Sequence record: PP430345
From: Escherichia phage vB_EcoM-LTH01
Reading direction: 5' to 3' (one strand)
Length of the DNA: 64,000 nt
Shown here: one piece after another, positions 9,375 through 29,509 of the stretch
How positions within the stretch are numbered: position 1 is the stretch's first letter
Layout: each line of letters begins with the position of its first letter
The notes under the pieces: generated by a model
The model's database searches: none
What the model saw: only the letters and a program-made list of their open reading frames with translations
What the model was told of the DNA's origin: nothing
Translations under genes and position numbers: made by a program

Positions 9375-9878
9375 ATGAAATTAACTATCGAATTAATCCC
9401 AAGCACAGCTTGGGACAACAACCTTCGGTCTTACCTTACCCAATCTGGTTGGGACAAAGTTCGTCGAAAGTGCTATCAAGAAGCAAACTACCACTGTGAG
9501 GTTTGTGGAGGTCAAGGTGGAAATGGACGTAAGCATCCATGTGAAGCTCACGAGGTATGGGACTTTGTTGATGGGGAAGTTGTGTTAAGGGGTGTGATCG
9601 CTTTATGTCCTCCTTGCCACGAAGTAAAACATATCGGTCGTGCTCAAGCGACTGGTAACATGACTCGTGCAATACGACACTTTATGAAAGTTAACGGTGT
9701 TGACAAGAAGGCTGCTGAAGAATACATTAGGCAAGCTGCGGCATTGTGGCGAGAAAGAAGTAAGCAAGAGTGGTCTTTGAATATCGATTATCTGTATGAA
9801 TACATGGGTAAAGATTTCAAATTCAAGCGACCAGTAAAAGAAGTTAAAGAAGACGAAGATTACGGCGAAGCATTTTAA
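9375..9878 (+). CDS. HNH-like zinc-finger protein (possible nuclease)
   Basis: CEVCGG...HPCEAHEVW...CPPCHEVKH cysteine/histidine motif. Confidence 0.45.
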   Translation: MKLTIELIPSTAWDNNLRSYLTQSGWDKVRRKCYQEANYHCEVCGGQGGNGRKHPCEAHEVWDFVDGEVVLRGVIALCPPCHEVKHIGRAQATGNMTRAIRHFMKVNGVDKKAAEEYIRQAAALWRERSKQEWSLNIDYLYEYMGKDFKFKRPVKEVKEDEDYGEAF

Positions 9879-23370: not shown

Positions 23371-24123
23371 ATGCAACGTCATACTAATCGTAAATCTCGT
23401 CAGGATCGTCGTGAAGAGAAGCGTTCAAAAGGCCGTCAGGTAACACCTAAAGCATATGAAGAGTTGAAAAAACCTATTACTCCAAAGAACCGATTCCAAA
23501 AGGAATTGTTATCCCTGGTTAACGAGAAGGAAGTTGTTTTCGTTAACGCTCCGGCGGGTACAGGTAAGACATTTGTCATTATGAGTACCGTTATTGATTG
23601 GCTGAAGCAAGGTAAGATTGAAAAGATCGTCCTTACTCGACCAACATTGGGAATGGGGAACAGCCTCGGGTTACTACCTGGGACTATCCGTGAGAAATTC
23701 GAGCCTTTCCTTCAGGCACTTATTCAGGTTATTCAGCAACGCTACGGTCACGGTTTCTTTGAAACTCAGTTGGGTTGTGGTAACATTGAATTTGTTCCTC
23801 TGGAATATATCCGTGGACGTTCTTTCGATAATGCGGTTGTTATTGTCGATGAGTTTCAGAACACAGATGAAGATACGGCTTACACGATTATGACTCGTAA
23901 AGGTGAAAGTTCTAAGCTGTTCTGCTTAGGCGATATCACACAGAACGATATGCGTAATCGTGAAACTGGATTAGAATGGGCAATCGAATTCATTGATCGT
24001 CATGAACTTTACGACTTTGCTGACTATGTGGAAGCAACAAGTGAAGAAATTGTCCGTAGTCCATTCTGTAAGGCAGTTGTTAAAGCTCGTGAAAGGGATC
24101 TTAAAGGAGGTAATTTAGTTTGA
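23371..24123 (+). CDS. phoH: PhoH-like ATPase
   Basis: Walker A NAPAGTGKT, Walker B VIVDEFQN. Confidence 0.9.
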   Translation: MQRHTNRKSRQDRREEKRSKGRQVTPKAYEELKKPITPKNRFQKELLSLVNEKEVVFVNAPAGTGKTFVIMSTVIDWLKQGKIEKIVLTRPTLGMGNSLGLLPGTIREKFEPFLQALIQVIQQRYGHGFFETQLGCGNIEFVPLEYIRGRSFDNAVVIVDEFQNTDEDTAYTIMTRKGESSKLFCLGDITQNDMRNRETGLEWAIEFIDRHELYDFADYVEATSEEIVRSPFCKAVVKARERDLKGGNLV

Positions 24124-26198
24124 TTATTGCAAAACGTGACGGGCGTGAAGAAACCTTGTGCACGGATAAGATCGGAGCAGCCCTTCGGGGCGCTCTTTTA
24201 TCTGCTGGCACTAAAGCCGATATTGATAAACTTATTGCTAAAGTTGTCAGCCAGATTGAAGGGAAAGACCGTGTATCGGTAGAAGAGATTCATAAGGTTG
24301 TTGAAAATACTCTAATGAGTCAGAAAAATCTTCAAGATGCTGCTCGATGCTATATCGAATATCGTCATGACAGAGATTCAATTCGTGAAGGTAAAGGTAA
24401 ACTTTATGCGGATATTAGTGGATTTTTGGATCAGACGGCTGAAGAATTTACTCGTGAGAATGCGAATAAGCCCAGCAACTTGGTAAATACTCATCGAGAT
24501 TTACTGGCAGGTATTTTGAGTAAACATATTAGTGTTAATCAAATCTTACCGAAAGATCTTGCGGCTTGGCACAATGACGGATACGGCCACATTCATGATT
24601 TGGATTATCTGGTTAGTCCTTTGACAAACTGTTGCCTGGTTAACTATCGGGATATGCTGGAAAATGGTTTTAAGATTGGTAACGCAAAGATTGAAAAACC
24701 TAAATCTATTGGTGTAGCAACAACAGTTCTAACACAGATTATTCAGGCTGTAGCATCCAGTCAATACGGAGGACAAACATGTGCTCATATTGATGAGGGT
24801 TTGAAAACATATGTTGAGATGAGCCACAAAAAGAATGTTGAGTTTTTAGAAAAGATCGGAAAACCTAATGAATCTTTAGCAATGGAAATGACAGACAGGG
24901 ATGTGTATGATGCAATGCAAACTCTGGTTTATCAGGTTAATACTTTAATGAGTGTTAACGGTCAATCACCTTTCATTACGATCAGCATGGGTCTTGAAAC
25001 TTCAGAGTTTGGGAGAATGATTACCAAAAACTACCTAAAGGTCCATACCGAGGGGCTTGGTAAAGATAAGGTAACTCCAGTTTTTCCGAAGGTTGTCTTC
25101 TTTTTGCAAGATGGTGTAAACCTGAAGCCAGATGATGTTAATTATGATCTGAAACAAATGGCAATGCAGTGCTGTGTTGAAAGGATCTATCCTGACTTCA
25201 TCTCTGTGCCATTAAATAAAGAGGTTACTGGATCTTCAGATGGGAAAGTTACAAGTATGGGTTGTAGGAGCTTCCTTTCCAAATTTACGACAGAACATGG
25301 AGAGAAGTATGATGGGAGGTTCAACCTGGGTGTTGTGTCGATCAACCTACCATTGATTGCGGCAGAGTATAAAGCCAAAGGTGGTAATTTTTATGCACTT
25401 CTTGACCAGCACATGGAAAACGCATATGAATCGCATATGGTTCGTGTCAACCGACTTAAAAATGTAAAAGCTTCTCAAAACCCCACGCTTTTTATGGAAG
25501 GAGCTTTGGCAAGACTGGGAGCTAACGAAAAGATCGGTAAGTTATTCTACGATGGGTATGCCTCAATCAGTGTCGGGTATGTGGGATTATCTGAAACTGT
25601 TGAGATTATTGTTGGGAAAAAGGATAAGGGTTTGGCGGTAATGATCCTCAATCACATGAAAATAAAATGTGATGAATTTAAAGAGCGCTCACGTATTTCC
25701 TTTAGCCTCTACGGAACACCTGCTGAGAGTTTATGTTATCGTTTCGCTACCAAGCTTAAGGAAAAATATCCAGGGGTTCTTGATCGGGATTACCTTACAA
25801 ACTCCTTTCATGCACCTGTTTGGGAACATTCAGATCCTTTCAGTAAATGGAAGTACGAGTCAGGTTTTGCAACAATAAGTTCTGGTGGTAATATCGGGTA
25901 CGTTGAAACGCCAAACTTGAAAAATAACATTAAGGCGCTTGAAACATTGATCGACTATGGTTATGATACTATACCTTACTTTGGTGTCAATCAACCTGTG
26001 GACCAGTGCTTTAAGTGTAACTTTAGTGGTGAGTTTCATGCAACAGCAAAAGGTTTTGAATGCCCTTGTTGCGGGAATAAAGAAGAAGGAACAATTTCAG
26101 TAATCCGACGGGTTTCTGGTTATTTATCGGCTCCGAATGCAAGACCTTATAATAAGGGTAAGATGCAGGAGGTCTTACAAAGGGAAAAACACGTTTGA
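24120..26198 (+). CDS. nrdD: anaerobic ribonucleoside-triphosphate reductase
   Basis: TTG start; ATP-cone; C-terminal glycyl-radical motif RVSGYL and Cys cluster CFKCNF...CPCCG. Confidence 0.9.
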   Translation: MIIAKRDGREETLCTDKIGAALRGALLSAGTKADIDKLIAKVVSQIEGKDRVSVEEIHKVVENTLMSQKNLQDAARCYIEYRHDRDSIREGKGKLYADISGFLDQTAEEFTRENANKPSNLVNTHRDLLAGILSKHISVNQILPKDLAAWHNDGYGHIHDLDYLVSPLTNCCLVNYRDMLENGFKIGNAKIEKPKSIGVATTVLTQIIQAVASSQYGGQTCAHIDEGLKTYVEMSHKKNVEFLEKIGKPNESLAMEMTDRDVYDAMQTLVYQVNTLMSVNGQSPFITISMGLETSEFGRMITKNYLKVHTEGLGKDKVTPVFPKVVFFLQDGVNLKPDDVNYDLKQMAMQCCVERIYPDFISVPLNKEVTGSSDGKVTSMGCRSFLSKFTTEHGEKYDGRFNLGVVSINLPLIAAEYKAKGGNFYALLDQHMENAYESHMVRVNRLKNVKASQNPTLFMEGALARLGANEKIGKLFYDGYASISVGYVGLSETVEIIVGKKDKGLAVMILNHMKIKCDEFKERSRISFSLYGTPAESLCYRFATKLKEKYPGVLDRDYLTNSFHAPVWEHSDPFSKWKYESGFATISSGGNIGYVETPNLKNNIKALETLIDYGYDTIPYFGVNQPVDQCFKCNFSGEFHATAKGFECPCCGNKEEGTISVIRRVSGYLSAPNARPYNKGKMQEVLQREKHV

Positions 26199-26677
26199 AC
26201 ATCTGCGGATATGAAAGCACAGACTTCATCAACGGGGAGGGTGTAAGAACCTCCCTGTGGGTTAGTGGATGCAGTCATAAGTGCAAAGGCTGTTTTAATC
26301 AAAAGGCATGGTCATATAGTTACGGAAAAGAATTTGCAGATGAAGATATGGAGAGATTGAAAAAAGATCTTTCTCGTAATTTTATCAGTGGATTATCGAT
26401 CATGGGTGGAGAACCTCTTGACCCTGAGAATATTGATATTGTAAAAAGAATCATCAAGGAAGTAAAGTCGTCCTTTGGTGAGAGTAAAGATATCATGGTG
26501 TGGACAGGGTATCTTTTTGAAGATTTAGATGAGGAAATAAAGAAACACGTTGACTTAATCATGGACGGTAAGTATAATGAAAACAAACCTACAACTAAAA
26601 GATTCAGGGGATCAGATAACCAAAGGCTTTGGAAAAAAGTTAATGGGTACTGGTCAACTGAAGATGAAGGAGGTTAA
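26195..26677 (+). CDS. nrdG: anaerobic RNR activating protein (radical SAM)
   Basis: CSHKCKGC radical SAM cluster motif; overlapping start with nrdD stop. Confidence 0.85.
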   Translation: MNICGYESTDFINGEGVRTSLWVSGCSHKCKGCFNQKAWSYSYGKEFADEDMERLKKDLSRNFISGLSIMGGEPLDPENIDIVKRIIKEVKSSFGESKDIMVWTGYLFEDLDEEIKKHVDLIMDGKYNENKPTTKRFRGSDNQRLWKKVNGYWSTEDEGG

Positions 26678-26678
26678 A

Positions 26679-27296
26679 GTGCCAGCTTATACAGGAATAG
26701 GTTCAAGGGAGACTCCTGAAGAAATATTAAAAATTATGGAAGATGCAGGTTGGAGATTAGCAAGAGTTGGGTACACATTACGATCTGGTGGTGCAGGTGG
26801 CGCAGATGCAGCATTCCAAAGGGGTATGCAGAGGTTTCATGAAGATTGTAATATGACCCAATCACCGAGTAGACTTGCAGAGATATATGTTCCTTGGAAT
26901 AACTTTAAAGGTGGACAGGGACTTAAGGACCTGTATAATATCTCTCTGAATGAAATCGACAAAGATTTCCCACAGCATAAAGAGATGCGTTGGGATTGGG
27001 TGAAAGAAGTTCATGGTGGTTGGGATAAGTTGAGTCAGGGAGCAAGGAAGTTGCACGAAAGAAACGTACACCAGATTTTTGGTAAAAATCTTTCAAATGC
27101 ATACTTGATGCAAAGTAAATTTGTGATATACTACGCAAAGGAAACAAGAACGGGCAATCCCAAGGGTGGCACTGCTACAGCAGTCAATCTTGCAAAGAAG
27201 AGTGGAGTAAGAACACTTAATCTTTGGAAAGAAGACAACATCACAGTGCTTGAGAATTTCTTAGTTAACTTGGAGTCAAAACGTGGTCTTAGATAA
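26679..27296 (+). CDS. DprA/Smf-like (SLOG-superfamily Rossmann) protein
   Basis: GTG 5 nt after GAAGGAGG; GIGSRETP...GYTLRSGGAGGADAAFQRG and C-terminal GGTATAVNLAKKSG. Confidence 0.5.
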   Translation: MPAYTGIGSRETPEEILKIMEDAGWRLARVGYTLRSGGAGGADAAFQRGMQRFHEDCNMTQSPSRLAEIYVPWNNFKGGQGLKDLYNISLNEIDKDFPQHKEMRWDWVKEVHGGWDKLSQGARKLHERNVHQIFGKNLSNAYLMQSKFVIYYAKETRTGNPKGGTATAVNLAKKSGVRTLNLWKEDNITVLENFLVNLESKRGLR

Positions 27297-27600
27297 AGCA
27301 AAGATGTTAAACAACACTTATGCACTTGGTCGTCCTAAAAAAGAAAAGAATTTCGTTGTTGGTATGTGGGTCAATCAGGACCTTTGGACGACAGATGGCA
27401 AAAATAAACTAATCTGTAATTTTAAAGACATGGTTCAGTGGAAGTATTTTCTTGAAAGTAAGGAGTACGTTTCCGAGGTTGAGTTGAAAACTGGTGATCG
27501 TGTGAAAGAGGAAGATGAAGACGGAATTGAAAATTGGTTCTATGTAATCCACAAGATCGCAGAGAACGACGGGAAGTTTAAATATTTAATCGGAATTTAA
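27283..27600 (+). CDS. hypothetical protein
   Basis: 105-aa ORF. Confidence 0.45.
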   Translation: MVLDKAKMLNNTYALGRPKKEKNFVVGMWVNQDLWTTDGKNKLICNFKDMVQWKYFLESKEYVSEVELKTGDRVKEEDEDGIENWFYVIHKIAENDGKFKYLIGI

Positions 27601-27608
27601 GGGGTGAT

Positions 27609-28079
27609 ATGGATAAGGGTATGTACGCAACAGTTGATCATCGTAAACTGATGGAATTGAAAAATTGTGGGGCTATTGTTCCTGATCGTATTGAAGAAAT
27701 CGCAACAGCCCTGTTCGAAGAGTTAATATTTGGAATTAAGACTTTGCGTAAAAACAACGATGAGTATCGTGGATGGTTTTCTCGCTTATTCTTAGGCTCT
27801 CTTAGTATCGATCAGGAAGTTGATATTATGTTCTCTACTCGAAAAGAGTTGATAGAGCATTTATCAGCCATTGAGGTCCCAAGTAAGTTATGTCCAATCA
27901 CGGAAGAACTTAAAGAGCAGATTATCTTTTTAGATCGTGCGGCACTTTACACTGCCGAAGCAGCAAAGATTCTTGATATGTTCAAACGTCATCATGAAGT
28001 AATTGTTGACTCTGATCATTCTGTCGTAGTAGACTGGGTTCTGCAAAACGCTACCCGCATCCGTACTTTAATTAGCTAA
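27609..28079 (+). CDS. hypothetical protein
   Basis: 156-aa ORF. Confidence 0.5.
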   Translation: MDKGMYATVDHRKLMELKNCGAIVPDRIEEIATALFEELIFGIKTLRKNNDEYRGWFSRLFLGSLSIDQEVDIMFSTRKELIEHLSAIEVPSKLCPITEELKEQIIFLDRAALYTAEAAKILDMFKRHHEVIVDSDHSVVVDWVLQNATRIRTLIS

Positions 28080-28091
28080 GGGGGAATTAAT

Positions 28092-28937
28092 ATGGAAGAA
28101 ATCGTAATGAATGGTCCGGCAAAAAACATTTGGGTGTCTCCAGTAACTTCTAACGATTGGCGTATTTATGTTACGGATCTGCACAATTCACCTGAAGCAC
28201 ATATCGAGGCTGTTGACCTGATTCGTTCAGCACCAGAAGGTGATATTGTAAATCTGTACATTACTTCTTGCGGTGGTTATTGTGATATCGCAGATATGTA
28301 CATGACAGCGATCTCTGAAGCTAAGGCGACTGTTGTGACACACGGCATTGGTGAAGTGGCAAGTGCTGCAACAATGATCTTCTTATCTGGTCATGTTCGA
28401 ATTTGTCGTCCAGGTTCTCATTACATGTTTCACAACGTCCAGATGAGTATGGGTGGTGACTCGGCGCTGGTATTTAAACGTAGCGATTTCTACAAAGACC
28501 TGTTCAAAGAGAAATACTACGATCTGTACAAGGGTGTTATGACAGAAGATGAACTCGTTGAACTGTTTGATCGTGCTGGCGAAATTTACTTCACTTCCTC
28601 TCAGATGCAAGCCCGTTTGACCGCTGAAGATGAAGCAATTAAAAAGCAAATGGAAGCCGATCAACAAAATACAGGGGGGATTAAGGTTGAAGGGTCAATC
28701 GAATCGAGTGATGTTGATGATGCGAAGGAAATCGGAGAGGGAGAATTTGAAATCGTCCTCGACGAAGGCTACGCCAAAAAATTCAACATCTTTACTCTTA
28801 ACCCGCGAGACTTTGACGAGTACAACCTCGACGAACTAGACGAGATTGCGGAATGTTTCGGTGTTGAACAGTACGTTTATTATCGTGACGAGTTAATTGA
28901 ACAGATCATCACTGCGGCGAAAGAAGGGGGCAAATAA
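28092..28937 (+). CDS. ClpP-like serine protease with acidic C-terminal extension
   Basis: ITSCGGYCDIADMYMT...GEVASAATMIFLSG...MFHNV catalytic Ser/His context; acidic tail. Confidence 0.7.
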   Translation: MEEIVMNGPAKNIWVSPVTSNDWRIYVTDLHNSPEAHIEAVDLIRSAPEGDIVNLYITSCGGYCDIADMYMTAISEAKATVVTHGIGEVASAATMIFLSGHVRICRPGSHYMFHNVQMSMGGDSALVFKRSDFYKDLFKEKYYDLYKGVMTEDELVELFDRAGEIYFTSSQMQARLTAEDEAIKKQMEADQQNTGGIKVEGSIESSDVDDAKEIGEGEFEIVLDEGYAKKFNIFTLNPRDFDEYNLDELDEIAECFGVEQYVYYRDELIEQIITAAKEGGK

Positions 28938-28939
28938 GA

Positions 28940-29449
28940 GTGGCAGCATTGAAACCTAAAGCAGAGCGCCGTGAAAATGATCGCTATGAAACTCCGAAAT
29001 GGGCAGTAGATGCTTTCTTGAATTTAGTTCCAATCCGTCAGGATTGGACTTATCTGGAACCTTGCAGAGCCTCTGGAAGTTTTTATAATGAAATGCCAAT
29101 TGGTTCAGCCTGGGGAGAGATTCAAGAAGGTGTTGATTATCTTGCAACTAAATACAATAAGGTAGATTGTGTGTTAACTAATCCACCTTACAATTTAGCT
29201 CAAGAGTTTGTAGAAAAAGCGCACAAGGATGCTGATGTAGTGATCATGCTTCTTCGTTTAGGTTTCCTTGAGAGTACCAAACGTGTTGAGTTCTGGAAGC
29301 AATACCCTGTTGATCACTTAGTTACTTTATCTAAGCGACCTTCTTTTACTGACGATGGTAAAACAGATGGTGCAGCATATGGTTATTTTATTTGGGATAA
29401 AAAAGGTAAACTTGGTTTAACAAAACCTTTTTACTGGATTCACCCTTAA
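28940..29449 (+). CDS. DNA N6-adenine methyltransferase (short phage Dam type)
   Basis: YETPKWAVDAF, EPCRASGSF (motif I) and LTNPPYN (motif IV NPPY). Confidence 0.7.
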   Translation: MAALKPKAERRENDRYETPKWAVDAFLNLVPIRQDWTYLEPCRASGSFYNEMPIGSAWGEIQEGVDYLATKYNKVDCVLTNPPYNLAQEFVEKAHKDADVVIMLLRLGFLESTKRVEFWKQYPVDHLVTLSKRPSFTDDGKTDGAAYGYFIWDKKGKLGLTKPFYWIHP

Positions 29450-29455
29450 ATTTAA

Positions 29456-29509
29456 AGGTCACCTTTGGGTGGCCTTTTTTATTGACTTGAATTCATGGAT
29501 GTGTATAAT
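29456..29509 (+). promoter_or_regulatory. fused terminator-promoter module
   Basis: AGGTCACCTTTGGGTGGCCT + T6 running into TTGACT - 16 nt - TATAAT. Confidence 0.65.

Follow-up and report, generated by a model that had tools for sequence, protein, structure and literature searches.

The window analysed here is a stretch of 64,000 nucleotides from the genome of Escherichia phage vB_EcoM-LTH01 (sequence record PP430345), an rV5-like phage of the Vequintavirinae. Over 8.5 kb it is 94-95% identical to phages A7_1, A73, W70, A5-4 and UPEC06. On its plus strand, the gene directly after nrdG, which is labelled "hypothetical protein" in phages of the A7_1/UPEC06 group, encodes a protein of 205 amino acids (aa) with the fold of the SLOG (Smf/DprA-LOG) superfamily. 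This SLOG gene and its product are the subject of the present analysis, in which a link to nicotinamide adenine dinucleotide (NAD+), ADP-ribose and counter-defence is tentatively put forward. The features discussed below are collected in Table 1.

Table 1. The SLOG gene, the conserved elements of its product and other features of the window (positions are those of the window, residue numbers those of the 205-aa protein; CDS, coding sequence; MTase, methyltransferase; nt, nucleotides).
Feature	Position	Strand	Remark
Stand-alone NADAR (YbiA-like) gene, intact, 183 aa	8823..9374	+	Pfam E 4.3e-37
Co-directional string PhoH, NrdD, NrdG, SLOG, phrog_5456, phrog_7224, ClpP-like protease, DNA MTase	23371..29449	+	tightly packed
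Shine-Dalgarno sequence AGGAGG	26668..26673	+	5 nt before GTG, within the last nrdG codons; read from the sequence
nrdG stop codon TAA	26675..26677	+	1-nt gap to GTG 26679
SLOG CDS, 205 aa, single-domain SLOG (Smf/DprA-LOG) fold, PHROG 768	26679..27296	+	
G8-S9-R10-E-T-P13 loop after strand 1	26700..26717	+	G8, R10 invariant
R35-S-G-G-A-G-G-A-D43...F46..G49, glycine-rich loop and helix after strand 2	26781..26825	+	R35, G37, G41, D43 invariant
P72-W73-N-N-F76, directly after strand 3	26892..26906	+	P72, W73, F76 family-specific, nearly invariant
Helical insert with H112 and the H126-x-R128-N129-x-x-Q132-x-x-G135 helix	27012..27083	+	H126, R128, N129, Q132 100% invariant
G163-G164-T165 loop after strand 4	27165..27173	+	invariant
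Terminator-like hairpin, 10-bp stem and T run	29454..29477	+	closes the PhoH...MTase string
Promoter-like TTGACT-16-TATAAT	29482..29509	+	directly after the hairpin, before the next gene

The open reading frame (ORF) closes at a TAA (27294-27296), and GTG 26679 is its best-supported predicted start. This codon is preferred because the AGGAGG lies 5 nt upstream, because the N-termini of homologues (MxxYTGIGSR) coincide with it, and because the annotation of phage A7_1 uses the same GTG, giving 205 aa. The alternative in-frame ATGs at 26577, 26643 and 26664 have no ribosome-binding site. ATG 26577, used in a mechanical ORF list and in UPEC06 (239 aa), makes the gene overlap nrdG by about 100 nt, and the metagenomic cluster P0001 starts at ATG 26643 (217 aa); these longer gene-caller versions are probably mis-annotations. 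An earlier note on this DNA had held the start to be translationally coupled to nrdG. The geometry of the two genes is compatible with such coupling, which may be inferred from it.

Family membership is indicated by the PHROG 768 profile, which is matched with an E-value of 1.6e-63 (214.7 bits; residues 3-202 on profile positions 5-186 of 191) and carries the database label "DprA-like DNA recombination-mediator protein". An AlphaFold model of the protein (predicted local distance difference test score, pLDDT, 93.5; predicted template modelling score, pTM, 0.89) has the three-layer alpha/beta architecture and 5-stranded sheet of the superfamily and matches solved SLOG structures. The loops typical of the superfamily are found as G8-S-R10, S36-G-x-A-x-G41-x-D43 and G163-G-T165, invariant among 151 representatives drawn from clusters built at 50% identity; their placement relative to strands 1, 2 and 4 is taken from the model. 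In the structure comparison, DprA (3MAJ/4LJK) scored 14.0, with 143-146 residues aligned at 20-23% identity, followed by the molybdenum cofactor (MoCo) carrier (13.3), TM1055 (13.2), LOG/YgdH (12.9), ShosA (12.5), YpsA (10.8) and the ThsA SLOG domain bound to 3'-cyclic ADP-ribose (3'cADPR; 10.7). Foldseek gave a concordant result, with template modelling scores of about 0.5. At the level of the model, the SLOG fold of the 205-aa protein can be regarded as established, and DprA is the nearest structure by a small margin only. The search of the protein against NCBIfam gave no match, and two Pfam matches stayed below threshold (DNA_processg_A, 12.7 bits; SLOG cluster 4, 12.2 bits; both over residues 7-51).

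The family is large. Of the 542 homologues that a database clustered at 90% contains at E<=1e-3, none carries a precomputed Pfam domain. Clusters built at 50% identity supply 5358 representatives when E<=1e-3 is required and 4254 when the limit is E<=1e-10; members are mostly stand-alone proteins of 170-210 aa. Based on tblastn, the family is present in 1456 of 50,697 phage records (about 3%), with carriers among the Vequintavirinae, PAK_P1/PAK_P3-like Pseudomonas phages, T4-like phages of Klebsiella, Acinetobacter and Escherichia, T5-like Vibrio phages and jumbo phages. In 185,579 bacterial and archaeal species genomes, no more than 3 loci were picked up by a pattern scan, which, the patterns being narrow, is weak evidence of absence. 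These only cellular loci of the scan are L008, in a metagenome-assembled genome (MAG) of Chloroflexota, and L009 and L010, two copies of a homologue of 30% identity at distant sites of the Candidatus Azotimanducaceae MAG chromosome OZ241908.1. Judged from these sequence searches, the PHROG 768 family is almost entirely viral, and the SLOG gene is one ordinary representative of a phage family that is very common and already catalogued. The HIDEN-SEQ supplements for Bas54, also a Vequintavirinae phage, hold no entry attributable to it.

The earlier note had described the product as a DprA/Smf-like SLOG-fold protein. The structure comparison bears out the SLOG fold; an assignment to canonical DprA does not hold, as PF02481 is matched with 12.7 bits against a gathering threshold of 29.6 bits, over residues 7-48 only. 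The same sub-threshold match is seen in 107 of 123 family members (best E 1.4e-6), and none of them reaches the threshold. When a broad family profile (A2) was compared with the PDB sequences, DprA chains were the top matches (3MAJ, E 0.0028; Helicobacter pylori DprA, about 0.03); a narrower phage profile (A1) returned chance matches only (Csm1, phycocyanin) and was set aside. Against E. coli Smf, the family hidden Markov model (HMM) scores 8.8 bits over HMM positions 7-54, i.e. the N-terminal 48 residues, and hhalign of the family alignment gives 20 columns at a probability of 2%, a single-sequence template being too weak here. Local alignment of the C-terminal halves with DprA is not above chance, with 133 of 1000 shuffles reaching the score. 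About 60 residues of the SLOG protein do not superpose on DprA, and they are tentatively attributed to the helical insert after strand 3.

The G-x-R and SGxAxGxD loops are common to the SLOG protein and DprA/Smf (3MAJ, 4LJK/4LJR, 3UQZ), with an identical spacing of 25 residues. Unlike DprA/Smf, however, the family has its own invariant R35, W73, H112, H126 and Q132, lacks SAM and DML1 domains and is almost exclusively viral. Because PF02481 fails, only the first 48 or so residues align, about 60 residues are extra and the family has invariant residues of its own, the SLOG protein is best assigned to a family of its own in the SLOG superfamily, sister to DprA, and not to DprA proper; the "DprA" label denotes resemblance, not membership.

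Other branches of the superfamily fit no better. SLOG cluster 4 (PF18306, LDcluster4) is matched by the SLOG protein with 12.2 bits against a threshold of 26.3, and weakly by 28 of the 123 relatives (best E 2.1e-7). YpsA and YAcAr (YspA) are not matched at family level, and a single one of the 123 members touches YAcAr. Compared with the SLOG sensor of ThsA, a 3'cADPR receptor, the protein has no attached effector domain. The nearest characterised relatives of the family are DprA, ShosA and PsyrA.

Among the 151 representatives, the (nearly) invariant residues are G8, S9, R10, R35, S36, G37, A39, G41, D43, F46 and G49 in the N-terminal part and P72, W73, F76, H112, H126, R128, N129, Q132, G135, G163, G164 and T165 further on. 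Thirteen are strictly invariant (G8, R10, R35, G37, G41, D43, H126, R128, N129, Q132, G163, G164, T165). Both motifs on which the earlier note had based its assignment, GSRETP (residues 8-13) and RSGGAGGADAAFQRG (residues 35-49), were recovered at their places. The R35-G49 stretch is, besides the G8-R10 loop, the only one that aligns significantly to DprA (SGxAxGxD), and G163-G164-T165 occupies the position of the SLOG phosphate-binding loop, which reads SGS in DprA and GGxGT in LOG. In the model, the conserved residues fall in the loops after strands 1, 2, 3 and 4 and in the helix preceding strand 4, a topology from which they are predicted to line one SLOG ligand crevice. Such a pattern of conservation is typical of a specific ligand or an active site.

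As to the nature of the ligand, domain fusions give a first indication. Among the best 150 representatives, the SLOG domain is fused to NADAR in four. P0136 and P0239 consist of an N-terminal NADAR and the SLOG domain; P0135 and P0143 (about 1480 aa, metagenomic) combine the SLOG domain with YAcAr, SLOG cluster 4 and a C-terminal NADAR, leaving about 500 residues unassigned, and may be multi-enzyme ADP-ribose-processing proteins. According to Iyer et al. (2022), who argued from Macro and NADAR fusions, the prediction for the SLOG domains of viruses is that they sense or cleave derivatives of ADP-ribose (ADPR) (PMC9503650). The viral SLOGs of the NAD+/ADP-ribose network in that study likewise include stand-alone proteins of large phages as well as NADAR fusions, and co-occurrence with NADAR or Macro genes is common to both sets. 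They belong mostly to a YpsA-like clade, whereas the weak profile matches of PHROG 768 are to DprA and SLOG cluster 4.

Gene neighbourhoods were compared at 87 loci (80 IMG/VR contigs, 6 loci from phage records or metagenome contigs, and the window itself), which fall into 44 lineages when their SLOG proteins are grouped at 60% identity. HMMs were built from the neighbour clusters, their identities were checked against Pfam, and NAPRTase-family (Namat/Nampt-like), Prs/Adps-like, Macro and NADAR genes were counted. At least one of these genes lies within 8 kb at 16 of the 87 loci (9 of 44 lineages) and within 3 kb on the same strand at 15 loci (8 lineages). A NAPRTase-family gene is found within 8 kb at 13 of 87 loci, in 6 of 44 lineages. 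NARP pathways were recorded in a little over 5% of phages (10.1101/2024.02.11.579819); with that share of carriers and a 16-kb span making up about 1/10 of a genome, NAPRTase-family adjacency would be expected by chance at about 1% of loci, as compared with the 13 of 87 observed, a crude estimate that ignores phylogeny and the over-representation of large phages.

The arrangement is Prs - x - NAPRTase - Macro - x - SLOG in Otagovirus phiPsa315-like phages, Prs - NAPRTase - x - SLOG at L045 and L049, and NAPRTase - x - SLOG ... NADAR at L087; in a T4-like Klebsiella phage, NAMPT lies three genes downstream of the SLOG gene. A phage operon of Prs and Nampt constitutes the NAD+ reconstitution pathway NARP1 (10.1101/2024.02.11.579819). 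Two accessories of this pathway convert immune ADPR derivatives to ADPR, namely the Macro phosphatase Adpp, which is associated with NARP1 operons (10.64898/2026.01.28.702374), and the RyR-domain glycosidase RyDEP, which is inserted within one of them (10.64898/2026.05.28.727677). In several lineages the SLOG gene takes the same genomic position as these accessories, directly after the Prs/Adps-NAPRTase/Namat(-Macro) operon. Its fold is, however, unrelated to those of Adpp (Macro) and RyDEP (RyR), and the source phage has no NARP1 genes in the roughly 100 kb scanned.

At seven loci (L036, L038, L040, L041, L050, L060 and L097) the SLOG gene stands between a NARP1-plus-Macro cluster and genes of the tellurite-resistance type. 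In the phiPsa315-like loci TelA was confirmed with Pfam, the phiPsa315 record itself annotates a "tellurite resistance protein" and TerD, and vWA- and TerC-like ORFs were recognised by reading the sequence. It is possible that this NARP1-SLOG-tellurite region is an auxiliary or anti-defence island. At another locus, that of Vibrio phage JSF10 (L015, 3807-6483), the SLOG gene lies between annotated fragments or subunits of an NAD-dependent DNA ligase.

In the window, the NAD+/ADP-ribose link takes the form of the stand-alone NADAR gene. It is followed directly by an ORF of 167 aa (9375-9878, plus strand) that is called a "putative NHN endonuclease" in UPEC06 and a "homing endonuclease" in A7_1; in A7_1 the NADAR frame is broken up, giving two ORFs (L011, 35064-35333 and 35321-35767).

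Our preferred reading, held with somewhat less than even confidence, is that the SLOG protein is an NAD+/ADP-ribose-linked counter-defence accessory with a pocket for an adenine nucleotide or ADP-ribose. The pocket, made up of GxGSR, RSGxAxGxD, PW..F, the H112/H126-x-RN-xx-Q insert and GGT, would hold an adenine-nucleotide or ADP-ribose-type moiety. Expressed in the source phage from the probable PhoH...MTase transcription unit, the protein would act on a product that host immunity derives from ADPR and that is either free or linked to DNA; it would hydrolyse this product or sequester it, in concert with enzymes of the NADAR, Macro and NARP1 types. Which ligand is bound, catalysis as opposed to binding only, and the anti-defence role are points that we infer. 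Of the two roles suggested for this fold in the earlier note, the binding of nucleotide-derived ligands is the one favoured by context, namely the NADAR fusions and the NAD/ADPr neighbour counts, while the loading of RecA found no support in this analysis.

A more specific version, which we consider rather unlikely, is that the family forms a new counter-defence class, in which a pocket derived from DprA was re-tooled through H112, H126, R128, N129, Q132 and W73 and cleaves or sequesters an immune molecule derived from ADP-ribose. Candidate targets would be a Thoeris-type signal that escapes the known sponges and RyDEP, a product of the aRES type or single-stranded DNA (ssDNA) bearing an ADP-ribosyl adduct. 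The reaction product would then be passed to NARP1, or else NADAR and Macro enzymes would be partners of the protein.

Several observations weigh against an NAD+/ADP-ribose function. The association with NAD/ADPr genes is confined to about one fifth of the lineages, counted without a control set of random phage loci. A NADAR gene lies within 8 kb at only 2 of the 87 loci, and the NADAR link therefore rests on fusions and on both genes occurring in one genome, adjacency playing no part. Neither the window nor positions 45,001-144,828 of A7_1 (100 kb) contain a NAPRTase, Macro or Prs gene, and in neither does the SLOG gene lie within or beside an Adps-Namat operon, as a NARP1 accessory would. 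The commonest neighbours are PhoH (39 loci, 12 lineages), a ClpP-like protease (25 loci) and an MTase (24 loci), and in PAK_P3-like phages they are an ATP-dependent ligase and a helicase; with PhoH, ClpP-like and MTase genes as with ligase and helicase genes, a role in DNA metabolism fits equally well. Since the NADARs characterised so far take ADP-ribose off guanine in DNA (PMC11257639, PMC11125620), fusion to NADAR is just as compatible with ssDNA binding by the SLOG domain. Among structures and PADLOC models alike, the nearest counterparts are DprA-like proteins that bind ssDNA. In a screen of 72 phage lysates, cleavage of 2'-cyclic ADP-ribose (2'cADPR) was found only for phage DyoEdafos, where another fold is responsible, although carriers of the present family may have been absent from the screen (10.64898/2026.05.28.727677). 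Finally, no experimental study of any PHROG 768 member was found in the literature.

The string of genes from PhoH to the MTase is probably a single transcription unit, and the hairpin and promoter-like site behind it (29454-29509) look like a clean boundary. A second promoter-like sequence, TTGACT-17-TATAAT (11 of 12 matches), is found on the plus strand at 26550-26578, in the 3' end of nrdG and some 100 nt ahead of the SLOG gene; the number of such sites in the region (32) does not clearly exceed that in shuffled sequence (24.5 +/- 4.9). The physical adjacency to nrdG, pointed out in the earlier note, is real, but as a functional signal it fails, as nrdG is not upstream of the SLOG gene at any of the 86 other loci. 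In rV5-like relatives the order is PhoH - SLOG - phrog_5456 - phrog_7224 - ClpP-like - MTase - ... - CCA-adding enzyme, and only in the window does NrdD-NrdG (2.6 kb, 24120-26677, plus strand) sit between PhoH and the SLOG gene. The comparison of gene orders marks NrdD-NrdG as an insertion specific to the sublineage of the window, and it looks recent. For this reason the adjacency is functionally uninformative, and nrdG was rejected as a functional partner. At other loci (L017-L032, L007, L033 and L054), PhoH, SLOG, phrog_5456, phrog_7224, ClpP-like protease and MTase recur together or, in more distant lineages, PhoH-ClpP-like is followed by a run of small ORFs and then the SLOG gene. The recurrence may reflect a functional module or inherited synteny.

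Of the alternatives, the one that survives best is that the pocket grips phage ssDNA and, in the course of replication, recombination or repair, protects it or hands it over to a recombinase, helicase or ligase, be it host RecA or a phage enzyme. The present database label of the family implies just this role. We regard this as unlikely, though by no means negligible. In H. pylori DprA, ssDNA is contacted by the arginines R52, R143 and R170 (PMC12961424). The invariant R10 aligns with the first of these, the GTR arginine (R52 after the construct offset), and DprA chains are the top PDB matches of the family profile; the position of R170, however, is occupied by N170, which varies in the family, in an alignment that is itself non-significant (-1.1 bits). 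R143 may correspond to the invariant R128 if H-x-RN-xx-Q-xx-G is equated with F-x-x-RNRII-x-G of DprA, a manual motif match that found no support in the shuffle test and was downgraded accordingly. The protein is basic, with an isoelectric point of 9.47 (family median 8.4), PAK_P3-like and T5-like phages have ligase and helicase genes as neighbours, the NADAR partners have ADP-ribosylated ssDNA as their substrate (PMC11257639), and for DprA/Smf of jumbo phages an extra role in ssDNA binding was proposed by Iyer et al. (2021) (PMC7824862). It is the PhoH, ligase and helicase neighbours, the DNA-acting NADARs and the basic isoelectric point that keep this explanation alive. Against it stand the failure of PF02481 and the restriction of significant DprA alignment to the first 48 or so residues. 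Generic ssDNA binding would require neither the strictly invariant His, Gln and Asp nor the 60 or so non-superposing residues, and it leaves the NARP1/Macro neighbourhoods unexplained. Moreover, members of the family occur in T4-like phages, where a recombination mediator, UvsY, already exists.

It is improbable that the protein is an orphan DprA-like antitoxin of the ShosTA/PsyrTA type that neutralises the effect of a toxin during infection, as AdfN does for DarTG1. PADLOC matches the SLOG protein with PsyrA at E 4e-4, and of the 123 family members 77 are matched with PsyrA (best 2.6e-8) and 56 with ShosA (best 7.5e-6). The match of the SLOG protein covers residues 7-47 only, however, which is a superfamily-wide motif. 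The flanking genes are NrdG, phrog_5456 and phrog_7224, and no phosphoribosyltransferase is among the annotated neighbours. Since ShosA does not bind ShosT in order to neutralise it (PMC12961424), a homologue acting in trans is workable in principle, and orphan antitoxins of phages have precedent (PMC11257639). ShosA function nevertheless requires binding of ssDNA and RecA, and ShosA without its SAM domain is insoluble (PMC12961424). In the SLOG protein, the similarity to ShosA and PsyrA is confined to the N-terminal motif region and a SAM domain is lacking; it is encoded by a lytic phage, whereas ShosA and PsyrA are found in the setting of defence islands. The 5358 cluster representatives also seem disproportionate to two minor defence systems.

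A nucleotide N-glycosidase of the LOG type, or a nucleotide-pool enzyme working with the adjacent ribonucleotide reductases, is more doubtful still. The surrounding block of nucleotide metabolism (NrdAB, ThyX, NrdDG and a deoxyribonucleotidase) would suit such an enzyme, but nrdG is upstream only in the sublineage of the window. In LOG enzymes the catalytic Glu lies within a PGGxGTxxE motif. In a manual motif alignment its position falls on N170, variable in the family, and LOG PF03641 gives no match at any threshold for the SLOG protein and 123 relatives; unlike the LOG phosphoribohydrolases, the protein thus lacks the catalytic Glu and any Pfam match of the LOG or YpsA type.

The least probable explanation, which we would give very little weight, is that the protein binds incoming DNA, blocks restriction enzymes and stimulates the co-transcribed MTase, as is reported for H. 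pylori DprA. The small DNA MTase at 28940-29449, the last gene of the putative transcription unit, and MTase neighbours at 24 loci agree with it, and the idea that DprA lowers the restriction barrier has been put forward (PMC3597690); but MTase adjacency is mostly found in rV5-like genomes and, as these are related, may be inherited synteny, and the H. pylori activity belongs to canonical DprA, whose family test the SLOG protein fails.

For the window itself, the practical outcome is that start codon and annotation are put right and that the nrdG link is recognised as incidental. For the family, the name "DprA-like recombination mediator" derives from homology and is not upheld by the membership tests, and PHROG 768 is probably misnamed. 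If the pocket binds ssDNA after all, the family would represent a minimal DprA core and would help explain the conserved SLOG pocket in DprA itself. If the NAD+/ADP-ribose reading is true, a DNA-binding fold would have been re-used for a small ligand, and phages would have in this family a further, widespread means of countering NAD-based immunity of the kind of Thoeris, aRES and DarTG. Should it amount to a new counter-defence class, an anti-defence enzyme that has gone unrecognised would be present in about 3% of sequenced phages. Carriers of the family include therapeutic-type phages of Klebsiella, Pseudomonas, Escherichia and Acinetobacter.

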